DNA of 64,000 nucleotides from an uncultured Chroococcidiopsis sp. (GTDB lineage Bacteria; Cyanobacteriota; Cyanobacteriia; Cyanobacteriales; Chroococcidiopsidaceae). The notes under the pieces were generated by a model. The model saw only the letters and a program-made list of their open reading frames with translations. It was not told the origin of the DNA and did not search any database. The stretch lies in contig CAXTYC010000010.1 in the NCBI GenBank assembly GCA_964248365.1, positions 73,303-137,302 on the forward strand. Direction: 5' to 3'. Positions 1 to 64,000 of the stretch are shown one piece after another (the first letter of the stretch is position 1; each line of letters opens with the position of its first letter). Both the position numbers and the translations under genes were made by a program.

Positions 1-2719
1 GGGACAAGTGAAAGGTAGGTATAATGTGTCCTTGCCAGTGCAAAAACCGCTTACCAGCAGACTGCTTGATTTGATCGGGTTGAGGAATCAAAATTTCTAC
101 AATGCTGTCAGAAGGAAAGGCAAAAGCACTAGAGCCGACAAAGCAAACCAGTAACTTAGCAATCGATAAAGTCAGGGGAATGCGTAAAGTAAATACAGTG
201 CCTTCTCCTGGTTCAGAAGTGATGGTAACGCTACCCTTAAGCGATCGCAATTGATCGCGCACTACATCTAGTCCCACTCCCCGTCCAGACAGTTGACTAA
301 CTTGACTTGCTGTAGAAAATCCAGGCTCAAATAGAAATTCGAGTAGGCGCGACGGTTCGGCGGTGTCTGCTTGTTCAGGTGTCAATAGTCCCATCTTTAC
401 AGCCTTAGCGCTAATACGCTCCAGGTTGACACCTCGACCATTATCTCGCACCTCAATGATCGTTTGACTGCCCTGGTGATAGGCACAAATTTCAATTATG
501 CCTTGCTCTGATTTGCCTTGTTTAAGACGATCTTCCGGCGTTTCAATTCCATGATCGAAGGCATTACGGACTAAATGCACCAAAGGATCGTTGAGCTTTT
601 CCAATACTGCCTTATCTACTAAAACCCCCGTACCACTGAGTTTAAGTTCAACTTGCTTTTGATACGACATAGACAAGTCGCGCAACATTCGTGGAAAGCG
701 GTTAAGAATTTCACTCAAAGGCAGCATTCTTGCCCACATCAAGTCATCTCGCAAGTGACCAAGCATTTGGCGTTGTCTTTCTAGTGTCTGACTTGACTGT
801 CCGGCGAGTAAGACAACGTCAACTACGGTTTCTTCGAGTTGCGCCATTTCTTCCAAGGTTGTTTGTACTATGGAGTGTAATTCTCCATAGCTATCCATTT
901 CCAGGGAGTCAAAGTTAGTTTGACCCCATGCGATCGCTTCTGTAGGTGAGCTTGATACTACATTGTAGATATTCTGTTCTGTTTGACTGTTTGTTGGCGC
1001 TAATTGGCGATGTTTATAGCTTTCTGGATTTACTACTATTTGATCGGAAAATTCACGCAACATTTGACCAATTTGCTGAAATTTGCCAAATTTACGCAAT
1101 AACTCCTGAATAAATGCTTGTAACTGTTCGTTTTGCAGGGCAAGGCTATTGCGGTTAATTGCCAATTCGCCGATCAAATTATTCATCCGTTCTAGCCGTT
1201 CTAAGTCAACTCGGACGGAAAGCCCAGCGGTAGAAGTCTTAGGAGCCGAACTAGCTTCGGGTTTTGAACTTGTGGTGTTCGTTTTATTATTAGTTGGAGC
1301 AGAGACTAGGTCAGCCTTGGGTTGCACACTAGGCAAATGAGGAATTGCAGGAACTATAGCAGACTTAGAATCAGCTGGAGTAGTAATATCGTTTATGGGC
1401 GGTAAGTTATTAAATACCTGCTCGATTGATTGAAATGCTGAGGAATTATTTTGGCTATTATTTGGTGATAAGGAAGAATCGGCTGGAGTAGCTGAACCAG
1501 GATTTGCAGCTGTAGGCTCGTGGGAGAAGTTAAAGCTGCCAAAGACATCATCTAAAGAAGGAATAGAGCTAATTGCTTCATCATTAATCGGAGCAGCAGA
1601 GGTATTCGGCTCGGTTGAAACTGATTCTATTACCTGGGCGTTAAGTATTTGTGGCTCCAGATCTGAAAAGACATTAGCTAGATCTAGCGGTACTGTTGTC
1701 GCTGGCTGGGGTGCGATCGCACTCGTTAGAAACGTGCTAGGATCATTATCACTAATTGGCTGGGTCGAACTAAAGACACCAAAAATATCATCTAGCGAGG
1801 GAAGAGTAGAAGCTTCGGCAGTAACAGAATTATCGTTTGGTGGTTCTGTAAATGTGGGTAATTCATCAAATGTTCCTAAAGAGCCAAAGACATCGTCTAG
1901 GGATGTGAGAACATTAGCTTCCAGTCTTGGTGTTGATGCTATTGCTAATTGTGCAAGATCGGTCGAGGTAGTACCGCCACTTGTGCGATCCCCAGCCATC
2001 ACAGCTTGTCTACCAGCCTCAAAATCAGCTAAAGCTAGTTGTGTAATTTGCAAAGCTTGCTCTGGATGAGCCTCAAGTGCTGCTAAGGCTGACTGCGCGA
2101 TCGCGCCAAATCCAGGCAAGTTCAACATCTCAGCGATGCCAGTAAAAACCTCTACTTGCGCCCGCAATTCTCCGGCTATTTCCTTGCCTTGTGGCTGGGC
2201 TAAAACAGCTTCAAGCCGTTTTAGTCCCTGAGCGACATCTACCTCAAAGATAGACAATGCAATATCTACCCCCAAGTCAATTGAGCTAGGAAGGGAATCC
2301 GCCCCCTTGAGAAATTCTCCGATTTGGGCTTCTATCTGAGCAAACACAGGTTCTGCTGCTGTCATTGCCCGATCTGTATCGAATTGACCAGTATCGATCT
2401 GCTCCATCAAAGGGATACGGAGACAGTCGTAAGCTGCCAGCAACAAGCCTTCTACCGAGTCATCAATTTCGAGTTCTTCGTTATGAAGCCCCTTAAAAAT
2501 ATCTTCTAGGCTGTGAGCTAGAGTTTTAATCGTTTCTAGCCCAACACTAGCTGCTCCTCCCTTAATTGAGTGGGCAGCTCGCATCATGTTATGAACTTTG
2601 GCTGTACTGCGCTCTGTTTTTAGCGTCAGTAACTCTTCTTCAATTAGCTGTAGTAGCTCTGGGGCTTCTTGGATGAAGAACTGATAAGCTTGGTCGCGTA
2701 TATCAGAGTCAATTGCCAT
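1..2719 (-). CDS. pixL: CheA-like phototaxis/chemotaxis histidine kinase (PixL/TaxAY type): Hpt, long linker, dimerisation, HATPase, start of CheW domain; 3' end lies outside the window
   Basis: Not in the ORF track because it has no stop in the window. Manual translation from ATG at 2719 gives MAIDSDIRDQAYQFFIQEAPELL...MRAAHSIKGGAASVG (Hpt His); later HLVRNAFDHGIE, DNGRG and SGRGVGLDVV CheA boxes. Last visible gene of the PatA-CheY-CheW-MCP operon. Confidence 0.9.
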   Translation of the reverse strand, partial: MAIDSDIRDQAYQFFIQEAPELLQLIEEELLTLKTERSTAKVHNMMRAAHSIKGGAASVGLETIKTLAHSLEDIFKGLHNEELEIDDSVEGLLLAAYDCLRIPLMEQIDTGQFDTDRAMTAAEPVFAQIEAQIGEFLKGADSLPSSIDLGVDIALSIFEVDVAQGLKRLEAVLAQPQGKEIAGELRAQVEVFTGIAEMLNLPGFGAIAQSALAALEAHPEQALQITQLALADFEAGRQAVMAGDRTSGGTTSTDLAQLAIASTPRLEANVLTSLDDVFGSLGTFDELPTFTEPPNDNSVTAEASTLPSLDDIFGVFSSTQPISDNDPSTFLTSAIAPQPATTVPLDLANVFSDLEPQILNAQVIESVSTEPNTSAAPINDEAISSIPSLDDVFGSFNFSHEPTAANPGSATPADSSLSPNNSQNNSSAFQSIEQVFNNLPPINDITTPADSKSAIVPAIPHLPSVQPKADLVSAPTNNKTNTTSSKPEASSAPKTSTAGLSVRVDLERLERMNNLIGELAINRNSLALQNEQLQAFIQELLRKFGKFQQIGQMLREFSDQIVVNPESYKHRQLAPTNSQTEQNIYNVVSSSPTEAIAWGQTNFDSLEMDSYGELHSIVQTTLEEMAQLEETVVDVVLLAGQSSQTLERQRQMLGHLRDDLMWARMLPLSEILNRFPRMLRDLSMSYQKQVELKLSGTGVLVDKAVLEKLNDPLVHLVRNAFDHGIETPEDRLKQGKSEQGIIEICAYHQGSQTIIEVRDNGRGVNLERISAKAVKMGLLTPEQADTAEPSRLLEFLFEPGFSTASQVSQLSGRGVGLDVVRDQLRSLKGSVTITSEPGEGTVFTLRIPLTLSIAKLLVCFVGSSAFAFPSDSIVEILIPQPDQIKQSAGKRFLHWQGHIIPTFHLS

Positions 2720-60305: not shown

Positions 60306-60977
60306 ATGGTGACAACGCAGCAGCCCTCGACTAAGCAGGATATCCTGCAACATTTGCTCAAGCAGGGGATGGCGACTGCACACGACTTAGCAATAGAACT
60401 TAATATTAGTCCCCAAGCAATTCGCCGCCATCTTAAGGATATGGAGGCGGAGGAGTTAATCTTATACCAAACAGTGCAGGTGGGGATGGGTCGTCCACAG
60501 CACGTATATAAGCTTAGCAGTAAAGGGCGCGATCGCCTACGTCAAGAATTGGGCGAACAAGATAGTCATGGTAAATTTGCTGTTTCGCTGCTCGATACGT
60601 TAGCACAGACAGTAGGGCATGACCAAATGAGTGCCATTTTGCGTAAACAATGGGAACTTAAAGCACTAGAATACCGCGATCGCGTGGGTAATGGTTCGCT
60701 GCAAGAGCGAGTAGCCAATCTGGTAGAACTCAGAAAAGCTGAAGGTTACATGGCACAATGGTATTGTGTAGATGGAGATGCGGATAGAGATGGCGATCGT
60801 TTTATGCTAACAGAGCATAATTGTGCTATCTCCAATGTCGCCGCCTCTTTCCCCGTTGTGTGTGGACATGAATTAGAAATGTTTGCAACAGTTTTGCCAG
60901 ATTGTATTGTAGAGCGCACCAACTGGCTGATTAACGGCGAACACCGCTGCGGATACTTAGTGCAATTACGAACATAG
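60306..60977 (+). CDS. sufR: Fe-S cluster biosynthesis transcriptional repressor SufR
   Basis: HTH ISPQAIRRHL, MGRPQH, EHNC...VCGHE...CGY; divergent from sufB. Confidence 0.94.
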   Translation: MVTTQQPSTKQDILQHLLKQGMATAHDLAIELNISPQAIRRHLKDMEAEELILYQTVQVGMGRPQHVYKLSSKGRDRLRQELGEQDSHGKFAVSLLDTLAQTVGHDQMSAILRKQWELKALEYRDRVGNGSLQERVANLVELRKAEGYMAQWYCVDGDADRDGDRFMLTEHNCAISNVAASFPVVCGHELEMFATVLPDCIVERTNWLINGEHRCGYLVQLRT

Positions 60978-61040: not shown

Positions 61041-61298
61041 ATGAATATTCAACAGCAACCATCAACGCAATTTTTAAGCCTGGAAGAATCAGCCAAGGTA
61101 GACGCTGCTTTGCTTACTTCCCCTGAAAAATTTTTAGCTAGATTAACGATTTCATCCCTGAGAATATTGCAGCATATTGCTCAAGAATACAATGTAAAAA
61201 TTGAAGATTTAACAGCGCAGCAGATAATCGATTGGTTTGAGAAGGATGGGAAGGTTAGGCGAGAGCAAGGAATTGATGCTGCTTATTTGAAGTGGTAA
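61041..61298 (+). CDS. Small hypothetical protein (85 aa)
   Basis: ATG-started ORF with protein-like composition, followed by a hairpin. Confidence 0.7.
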   Translation: MNIQQQPSTQFLSLEESAKVDAALLTSPEKFLARLTISSLRILQHIAQEYNVKIEDLTAQQIIDWFEKDGKVRREQGIDAAYLKW

Positions 61299-61322: not shown

Positions 61323-61357
61323 ACCCTCCTAACCAATAGGGGGGTATTTTGTATTTC
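61323..61357 (+). terminator. Possible intrinsic terminator after the 85-aa gene
   Basis: accctccta-accaa-taggggggt followed by attttgtattt. Confidence 0.45.
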
Positions 61358-61439: not shown

Positions 61440-61484
61440 TTGACGAAACTATTAAGTCAAGCATATAGTGTTTGGTTGACTTAA
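61440..61484 (+). promoter_or_regulatory. Putative sigma70-type promoter of the Argonaute gene with an overlapping 9-bp inverted repeat
   Basis: TTGACG (61440-61445), 18-nt spacer, TATAGT (61464-61469); ttaagtcaa (61452-61460) / ttgacttaa (61476-61484). Confidence 0.45.
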
Positions 61485-63671
61485 ATGCATATTTCAAATA
61501 TGACAATTCATGAACTGAGCTTTAAATCTGTAAATGCAATTTCACCAGTCTCTTACTACAATCATCGGATAAGATTAAAAGAAGCGATCGCACCTGATAA
61601 ATTAGCATCCGAGTTAGGCTCGTTAGCTTCACATCTACGTCGGATTACTAAAACGCCTGTAGTAGCAGACACAGCGGAATTTTGCTTACTTAGTCCCTAC
61701 GAATTAACAACTGATGATACTTTTGAGATATTCTCAGTTTTAGCCGTAGATATAACCGCTACTAGATATCGTCGTCAGCTACAGCAGTTACTCAATCAAT
61801 GCCTGTGTGATTTCTTTCGTAGTCAGCGTTTGAGAGTAGATGCTTATAAACATAAAGCTTATTTATAAAAAGTACAAATTTCTGATGAAATTGAAGCACA
61901 AAGAGTTGTGCAATGGAATCTACGAATTGATAATAACAACTACGTATTTCTAGCAATTGATTATAGCAACGAATACCATAGCCTTTATCCTCTAGAGCAT
62001 GGTAACTTATCAACACTAGCCCCAGAGCAAGCGTTAGTTCATACTTATGATGGTAAAACTTGCCAATATGTGGGTATATCTGGATTTACTGTCTCAGAAC
62101 CCCAAACAGAATTAGGTAATGTCAGCTTACTAGAATACCATCGTCGCAAAGGAGAAGTGCCTGAACAAATCCTGAATGCTATTCCTCCAGAAACTCCTGC
62201 TATATTTGTTAAATATGGCTCAGTGGGAAATACTTTTATTGGTTCCCACATCCCTCAATTACTAAAAAAGTCCTTTACTAAAGATGACATTGAATCAAGA
62301 ATATTTAATGCTCGAGTTTTATCTATAGATGACCGATTTAAAAGAGCAATTAAGGGAATTGAGCAAATCAACTCTTCTGGGGTATTAAATATCCCAGGTA
62401 TGAATATTACCTTTAATACTCAACCATATTTACCGAACACTCAAATTAATTATATCAAAGTTAGCTCGAATAAAATAACTAATAAGTATGAAAATAATCT
62501 TGATTTTGGTAAAGGTGTGTTTGGTAGCTATCCAAGTCAAGGGTTAGCAAAACGAAGATTACTAGAAACACCAATCAACCCTATCAAAACAGTAATTTTC
62601 CATCCTGATAGTTTTAATGTTGTAAATTGGTGCAATGTTTTTAGAAGCTTTTTGACAAGTTTTAAAATCAATCTAGAATTCACCGAATTTCGCTCCTACA
62701 CTGTAGGCAATATGCTAGACATTCAAAGAAAATGTCGGGATTTGGGTAAATATGACCTTGCCTTGATGTTTGTACCAGATAAAGAAACATTTAGATCTAC
62801 ACCAAAATCTGACCCATATCCTATTCTGCGAAGACAGTTCATCAAGACGATGCTACCTTCTCAGGCGATAGAAGAAAGCACATTACGCTCTGGCTTTGAT
62901 AGTCCAAAAGGATATAACCTGCTGCTGCAAATTTTGGGTAGATTGGGTTATTGTCCTTGGCAACTTAAAAATATGCCTGGACAAGCTCAAGCTTTTCTAG
63001 GTTTGGATATTGGGCGCAAAGATGGTTTAGCTGTTGGTGTAGCTGCTTTTGTTGTCAGTCCGCAAGGCAAGGTTATTAGTTGGTTTCCATCTACATTTCA
63101 GGCACACCGCGAAACTTTTGATATATCAGCTTTACGTCAAATTATTTTTGATTTAGTAAATGTTTATGAGCAAAAATATCCAGATGCTCTAAATCATCTA
63201 GTTATTCACAGAGATGGAAATTTTCAAGCAGATGAACTTGACTTACTAGATACACTAACACCAGAGTTAAAACAAGCAGGAATTCAAAAATTAGATTTGG
63301 TAGAAATTCTTAAGTCAGGATACACCCGTGCTGCTCAGTGGAACGAAAGCTCCCAAAAATGGGAAAATCCACGTAGAGGATGGGCATGGTCTATATCTGA
63401 TGATGAAGTTGCTTTAATGACGGTGGGACAAAAAGAAATAAAAGGAGGAACTAACTTTGTTCCGCGTCCCATTGTAATACGACGGCGGCGGGGTGATACC
63501 AGCCCTGGAATTTTGGCTGCTCAAGTTTATTGGCTAAGTGAAATGCACGTTGGTTCAACTCAAACAATTCGCTTACCAATTACCACTTACTATCCCGATA
63601 AAGCTGCTGAGTTTGCTTTAGAAGGATTGTTACCAACAGGATTGCAAAGTAGTGGTAAATTGCCTTTCTAA
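61485..63671 (+). pseudogene. ago: Long prokaryotic Argonaute (N-PAZ-MID-PIWI) interrupted by a single in-frame TAA at 61866-61868
   Basis: ORFs 61485-61868 and 61908-63671 share a frame (...HKAYL*KVQISDEIEAQRVVQW...), 728 codons in total. PIWI motifs FLGLDIG, HRET, VIHRDG, LVEILKSG, TIRLPITTYYPDK give a DEDD tetrad. Family call is strong; pseudogene vs split gene is unresolved. Confidence 0.85.
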
Positions 63672-63920: not shown

Positions 63921-64000
63921 TTAACCATTGATGCTAGGAGCTTCAACTGCTGCCAAGTCTAGGGGGAAGTTGTGAGCGTTACGCTCGTGCATTACTTCCA
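63921..64000 (-). CDS. psbA: Photosystem II D1 protein, 3' end only
   Basis: Manual translation EVMHERNAHNFPLDLAAVEAPSING*. Confidence 0.95.
   Translation of the reverse strand, partial: EVMHERNAHNFPLDLAAVEAPSING

Follow-up and report, generated by a model that had tools for sequence, protein, structure and literature searches.

A probable recent nonsense knock-out of a stand-alone long Argonaute gene in Chroococcidiopsis, with an independent stop at the same codon in a second genus

The window, the whole stretch of 64,000 nucleotides analysed here, derives from an uncultured Chroococcidiopsis sp. (genome G000), and the gene under study lies near its downstream end (Table 1). Translation of 61485-63671 on the forward strand gives 728 codons with a single internal stop, a TAA that is codon 128 when counted from the ATG at 61485. 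The initial annotation had described one TAA in an otherwise open frame of this length, and re-translation agrees. Homologues begin at the second ATG (61500), from which the stop is codon 123 of 723; this numbering is used below unless stated otherwise. An in-frame GTG (codon 137) follows after 13 codons and has no SD-like sequence 5' of it, both as first read. The domain names given to the upstream piece (N and L1) are ones we presume from general prokaryotic Argonaute (pAgo) architecture.

Table 1 Features of the Argonaute locus in the window.
Feature	Position	Strand	Basis or remark
Winged-helix regulator, divergent from suf operon	60306..60977	+	Pfam, ORF list
Conserved 85-aa ORF, unknown function, 3' of sufR	61041..61298	+	Genome comparison
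Terminator-like hairpin parting upstream genes from Argonaute gene	61323..61345	+	
Putative sigma-70 promoter TTGACG-N18-TATAGT	61440..61469	+	Promoter scan
12-bp inverted repeat over -10 box of Argonaute promoter	61452-61484	+	Repeat search
Argonaute gene, 723 codons from homologous start	61500..63671	+	Long-A-type prokaryotic Argonaute, one TAA inside
Upstream ORF, 122 aa	61500..61868	+	N domain and first portion of L1
Premature TAA at Glu position	61866..61868	+	Codon 123 from 61500; inside beta-strand 119-126, L1 region of model
Downstream ORF from first in-frame GTG, 587 aa	61908..63671	+	Remaining L1, PAZ, L2, MID, PIWI; without residues 123-136 including IEAQR
MID 5'-end pocket residues Y445, R449, Q460, R486	62817..62942	+	Alignment; numbering from 61485
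PIWI catalytic tetrad D508 (63006), E543 (63111), D577 (63213), D705 (63597)	63006..63599	+	Alignment; numbering from 61485
psbA 3' end, convergent with Argonaute gene	63921..64000	-	Translation; contig ends here

The regulator gene upstream is one we take to be sufR, and the minus-strand gene at the contig end is presumably psbA. The locus had been described as an Argonaute gene sitting alone between these two; translation bears out the psbA 3' end, and on the other side the 85-aa ORF separates the gene from sufR. This ORF has no Pfam family above cut-off and no PADLOC match, and is present in 26 of 28 family genomes. The Argonaute gene follows it in just three of those 26 (G000, G010 and G023), which marks the gene as a patchy, stand-alone passenger and the 85-aa ORF as something other than a dedicated partner. 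The Argonaute gene is richer in AT than the genome, with GC contents of 37% and 43%, respectively. Both boxes of the putative promoter are conserved 5' of the G010 and G023 Argonaute genes, while the promoter scan as a whole does no better than chance (8 matches, 8.8 expected). The inverted repeat over the -10 box may be an operator; G010 and G023 retain only part of it. Neither the ORF list nor PADLOC places a Cas4-family ACE1 gene beside the Argonaute gene, and a Pfam scan of 29 ORFs flanking related loci returned no Cas4 and no other conserved partner, in line with the earlier statement that no partner nuclease or APAZ gene is adjacent. At three distant loci (L062, L064 and L069, two of them Pfam-scanned) a 730-aa ORF with pentapeptide repeats and a helix-hairpin-helix lies 5' of the Argonaute gene on the same strand.

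The frame matches Pfam Piwi (E 6e-17) and, less strongly, PAZ_3 (E 9e-5, under the cut-off), and its best PADLOC model is PprPIWI (E 2e-92). A profile of 23 homologues finds CpAgo (E 2.5e-50) and CbAgo (E 2.8e-46) as its best matches, followed by AaAgo, KmAgo and 9IAD (E 2.2e-20) and, at a distance, TtAgo (E 2.4e-8). The predicted structure of the nearest intact relative (P0001; pLDDT 81) matches CbAgo and CpAgo over the full length (TM 0.72-0.73) and KmAgo at a TM of about 0.72. The DEDD tetrad is complete in both translation and alignment, as the initial annotation had it: D508, E543 and D577 (numbered from 61485) are invariant in 28 of 28 rows, and the fourth residue is Asp in 25. The N-L1-PAZ-L2-MID-PIWI architecture is found in the reading frame and not in a product of the window allele, which, with its TAA, falls short of a full-length single polypeptide and is a broken member of the family. 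Taken together, the Pfam, profile, fold, PADLOC and neighbour scans back the earlier description of a catalytically complete, stand-alone long pAgo; sequence profiles and predicted folds support its placement in the CbAgo/CpAgo-like group, with the long-A assignment resting on these matches, as our tree comprised unnamed homologues.

CpAgo (PDB 9JH7) and CbAgo (PDB 6QZK), the stand-alone long-A proteins of Clostridium, resemble the window protein in tetrad, length and C-terminal motif. They differ from it in sequence (about 20% identity), in having Lys where it has Arg at two MID positions, and in lacking its stop. CbAgo acts on plasmids and phages by way of small DNA guides, according to the parts of PMC12094033 available to us. 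The likeness to the Synechococcus elongatus enzyme suggested earlier holds in the loose sense that SeAgo is also a cyanobacterial long-A pAgo. It does not hold more closely: SeAgo is nearest to TtAgo (PMC10653904, as excerpted) and so relates to the window gene only through the weak TtAgo match, CpAgo and CbAgo being nearer. Our partial coverage of the literature returned nothing on this clade. PLSDB gave 13 distant matches, 12 of them haloarchaeal by name, and of 34 candidates from a profile scan on viral contigs none was confirmed. The clade appears to be an unstudied stand-alone branch of CbAgo/CpAgo-like proteins, and its intact members P0001, P0007 and P0009 are candidate programmable nucleases.

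Two unusual traits, a Y/R/Q/R MID pocket and a shortened C-terminus, had been remarked on at the outset. The pocket residues are as read, and Arg is rare at both positions, which are Lys in 25 and 26 of 28 rows. Against the YKQ(TN)K pattern the protein has Y, Q and N, with Arg at both Lys positions; the accessible text of 10.1101/366930 allows K, R or Y as the second residue and assigns proteins with a non-Lys last position to class MID*. The C-terminus is no oddity, since LPF is the norm of the close clade (11 of the 11 rows that reach the C-terminus, of 12 in all). As both Arg residues also occur in intact P0001 and the LPF end is common to the close clade, neither is a lesion. The clade thereby offers a natural Arg/Arg variant of the MID pocket.

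At the stop codon, intact relatives available as DNA carry GAG or GAA. The nearest relative, P0001, is intact with Glu123 and shares 662 of 723 residues with the window (92%); like P0007 below, it is the single sequence that represents its cluster (13 members for P0001, 8 for P0007). The two form a pair with support of 100 in a quick tree, and the end branches are not lengthened (0.049 for the window, 0.038 for P0001). Of the changes that could be polarised, 31 fall on the window and 24 on P0001, with 2 and 0 at strongly conserved columns. Pairwise dN/dS is 0.23-0.27 for the portion 5' of the stop and 0.14-0.18 for the portion 3' of it; because the pairs are deep, these values record past selection and do not date the loss. 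Purifying selection on both halves and the kept promoter fit a recent loss and, equally, a maintained gene.

The same stop occurs a second time. A genome of another genus in the same family (G026) has TAA at codon 123, in the context TTA TAA ACA as compared with TTA TAA AAA in the window. The two genes share 495 of 714 residues (69%) and about 72% of nucleotides, and several well-supported branches part them. The G026 gene pairs with P0007 (support 98), which is intact with Glu, shares 697 of 721 residues with it and has an end branch of similar length (0.016, against 0.015 for G026). Each stop-bearing copy is therefore sister to an intact Glu gene, and the two stops are independent. The branch lengths of both pairs indicate that both lesions are recent, which upholds the earlier reading of a recent knock-out as far as the Glu codon of the intact close relatives and the branch lengths go. 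Gene conversion between the stop alleles was considered and rejected: near the site, G026 is closer to G013 (25-30 of 30) than to the window (20-23 of 30). On its contig (L051:1-10776) the stop-bearing gene sits amid ParA-like, ribbon-helix-helix, integrase and toxin-antitoxin-like ORFs, which suggests that this pAgo is plasmid-borne.

How surprising is the coincidence? Under four mutation spectra, with about 250-260 stop-accessible codons, two alleles would share a codon by chance in 0.3-0.5% of pairs, and any pair among 3-7 alleles would do so in 1-10% of cases. The coincidence is unusual, not extraordinary, and under simple mutation models it counts against a plain knock-out. In the portion of PMC7918605 consulted, independent same-position stops make up about 1.5% of orthologous stops. 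The cases described there share with ours a same-codon stop in more than one genome and surrounding dN/dS below 1; they differ in that most are not independent, whereas the window and G026 stops are. Elsewhere codon 123 is not a common break point. It is a stop in just two of the six close-clade genomic copies that cover it, and none of six short N-terminal database proteins ends there, all six ending at other positions. A site-anchored pattern found one locus in metagenomes, identical to the intact gene of G013, and none in viral sequences. The literature, as partially covered, yielded nothing on recurrent stops in pAgo genes. Two database proteins that are 73% alike (P0179 and P0180) both end just 5' of Gln68 without an out-of-frame tail; judged from the proteins, this is possibly a second recurrent nonsense site.

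A trivial explanation would be that the strain really has GAA, that its nuclease is intact and that the TAA is an assembly or sequencing error. The lesion is indeed a single-base difference with no further damage, and the close relatives are intact. No sequencing run carried at least half of the window's words (best word share 0.26; no RNA run among those listed). Contig sets of four relatives cover the gene; 61866 is not among the 40 differences listed, with 476 more beyond these. The assembly can nonetheless be judged by its other genes. From 800 kb of the congeneric genome G004 (40 stretches) came 401 ORFs no shorter than 200 aa, 193 of which have orthologue-like matches in G000. None of the 193 (79,193 codons) has a mid-gene stop; two have stops close to an end, and one is split into two in-frame pieces. 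This control, the nature of the change as a substitution instead of a homopolymer indel, the recurrence of the allele in G026 and the abundance of broken copies in the clade make a sequencing error, one of the options first raised, very unlikely.

A second alternative is that Glu123 is a favoured GAA/TAA site, through a mutational hotspot or through leaky readthrough that yields a low dose of a costly nuclease, so that populations contain on and off alleles and the gene stays under selection. On this view the switch would have been thrown separately in two or more lineages of cyanobacteria from rock, surface and airborne habitats, with all else in the gene left intact. Reversion or readthrough would restore the protein whenever defence is worthwhile. 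The outcome would be on/off heterogeneity in an immune gene without a repeat tract, a form of immune tuning that would be new for prokaryotes. The independent G026 stop speaks for it, as do the lack of a second lesion in either stop copy and the kept promoter. Brief, reverting in-frame stops are described as common in bacteria in the sections of PMC7918605 at hand. Both stops also create an 8-bp palindrome, TTTATAAA. Sequencing run X5 has two contigs from a close relative that share an overlap of 30 bases (61836-61865), as a graph branch at the stop base would produce; the break would be explained equally well if the variant lay at 61835, the third base of a codon, and we treat it as a lead only. 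The site itself has no repeat tract and no long inverted repeat, and k-mer counts in the genome show no bias for TTTATAAA over TTTAGAAA (0.91 vs 0.96); a palindrome-driven hotspot was dropped, as TTTATAAA is not enriched. The scarcity of stops at codon 123 among the close copies and short proteins weighs in the same direction. TAA is, moreover, the least leaky stop, and ARAGORN calls include no stop-anticodon tRNA, in a set that is incomplete. Programmed readthrough would be expected to keep the stop clade-wide, whereas the two carriers seen here are unrelated and each pairs with a Glu allele. Readthrough control, which the initial annotation had offered, finds no support, with no ochre suppressor among the tRNAs called, and a reversible switch as a whole seems to us unlikely. 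In G000, ARAGORN assigns anticodon ATC to a tRNA-Asp and TAT to a tRNA-Ile; Arg-ACG, Leu-TAA and Ile-GAT are missing from the set, possibly as intron-containing or unassembled genes.

The two open pieces might instead be functional, either as an active heterodimer of the 122-aa N piece and a GTG-started PAZ-MID-PIWI protein or with the downstream piece acting by itself. The downstream piece has an open frame of 587 aa that includes every catalytic residue, the break point is seen twice, and split pAgos of several origins are known (PMC10954474, in the parts available). The AfAgo-N/AfAgo and APAZ/short pAgo systems treated there likewise lay out one Argonaute fold as two adjacent frames. In them the division runs between N-L1-L2 and an inactive MID-PIWI, and effector partners are present; the window gene is broken within L1, keeps PAZ together with MID-PIWI and its tetrad intact, and has no partner. 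We found no pAgo split inside L1 in the literature as partially covered. In the model of P0001, residue 123 lies within strand 119-126 and the GTG restart within strand 131-143, so that break and restart would cut two adjacent strands and remove the IEAQR stretch. A restart at codon 137 would cost the protein residues 123-136, of which E132 is conserved in 26 of 26 homologues, I131 in 25 of 26, and Q134 and R135 in 24 of 26 each. G026 lacks the GTG at 137 and has its first downstream start at codon 149, with no SD in either genome; a GTG common to both occurs at codon 191, within PAZ. Of 29 homologues of 400-1274 aa, with each cluster represented by one sequence, not one starts immediately 3' of the site, and both stop copies have intact sisters. 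The initial annotation would have counted uninterrupted relatives throughout against a split protein; the relatives are not all uninterrupted, since G026 has the same stop, separately arisen. A natural split is nevertheless highly improbable, given the mid-strand break, the loss of invariant residues and a restart codon not shared with G026. Selection for the 122-aa product itself, acting in DNA binding or as a modulator of another pAgo, is just as hard to credit. The whole N-domain core of the model lies in the fragment, and several other lesions fall at codons 106-123. This clustering is partly an artefact of a 60-214 aa length filter, and the fragment ends vary. Folded alone from an 8-row alignment, the fragment reaches a pLDDT of 43, which tells for neither side.

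The locus is best read as a real and recent nonsense knock-out of an apparently uncharacterised stand-alone long-A pAgo, which we consider probable. The intact protein would most likely load short 5'-phosphorylated DNA guides and cleave matching foreign single-stranded DNA, judging from its tetrad, its fold and the solved relatives. A recent G-to-T change would have turned a Glu codon, presumably GAA, into TAA. Translation from the conserved promoter would now stop after 122 residues, probably with no downstream product, and leave no working nuclease. The loss may have been tolerated or favoured because this is an accessory defence gene in a genome with a second, intact pAgo+Cas4 system, and because active pAgos stand in the way of keeping plasmids and taking up DNA. 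The G026 stop would then be a parallel knock-out in an often-lost family, arising by chance or at a modest mutational hotspot. What is new here is the independent same-codon stop in G026, alongside an apparently unstudied clade. If this reading is correct, the window gene is an ordinary pseudogene, and active Argonautes in this cyanobacterial family are often lost, matching the laboratory selection against SeAgo. In S. elongatus, all eight of eight strains selected to keep RSF1010 plasmids had mutated ago, four of them by the same substitution (PMC10653904, in the excerpt seen). Those mutations arose in the laboratory under plasmid maintenance and, like the stops considered here, include repeated identical changes; they provide a precedent for selected, parallel ago loss.

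The second system is encoded at L072:6255-9361 (G000:C1), where an intact pAgo of 743 aa (pAgo_II, E 0) is followed by a Cas4-like gene (E 1.5e-141). An XRE repressor and a metallopeptidase-like ORF are found near this pair. The arrangement is that of APACE1 (CtAgo/MaAgo with the ACE1 Cas4 nuclease), as set out in the available parts of PMC12094033. APACE1 resembles the window gene in being a cyanobacterial long-A system with an intact tetrad in the same host family. The window gene differs in belonging to another clade, with 24% identity over 314 aa to the genome's APACE1-type pAgo, and in having no Cas4-like neighbour. Because this second system remains intact, the earlier suggestion that the knock-out might make the strain more transformable is doubtful.

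Broken copies are common among the relatives, though most comparison copies that are broken come from metagenome-assembled genomes and some of their indels may be errors. Among the seven close genomic copies (at least 55% identity), four are broken, two are intact and one runs across two contig ends. The broken four are G000 and G026 with the codon-123 stop, G023 with frameshifts, and G017, which has lost its first 282 codons. In a more distant set of 19 cyanobacterial copies, from which three non-cyanobacterial loci were left out, four are broken, 14 are intact and one is cut by a contig end. For APACE1-type loci, 14 were tried, 12 gave a match and four of these are broken; APACE1-type pAgos with a stop or frameshift occur in four other genomes of the family (L083, L084, L085 and L030). 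The 282-codon loss in G017 (L076:5823-6384) lies beside an ORF that we take to be transposase-like, and some 850 inserted bases disrupt the copy in G258 (L079:3176-4022).
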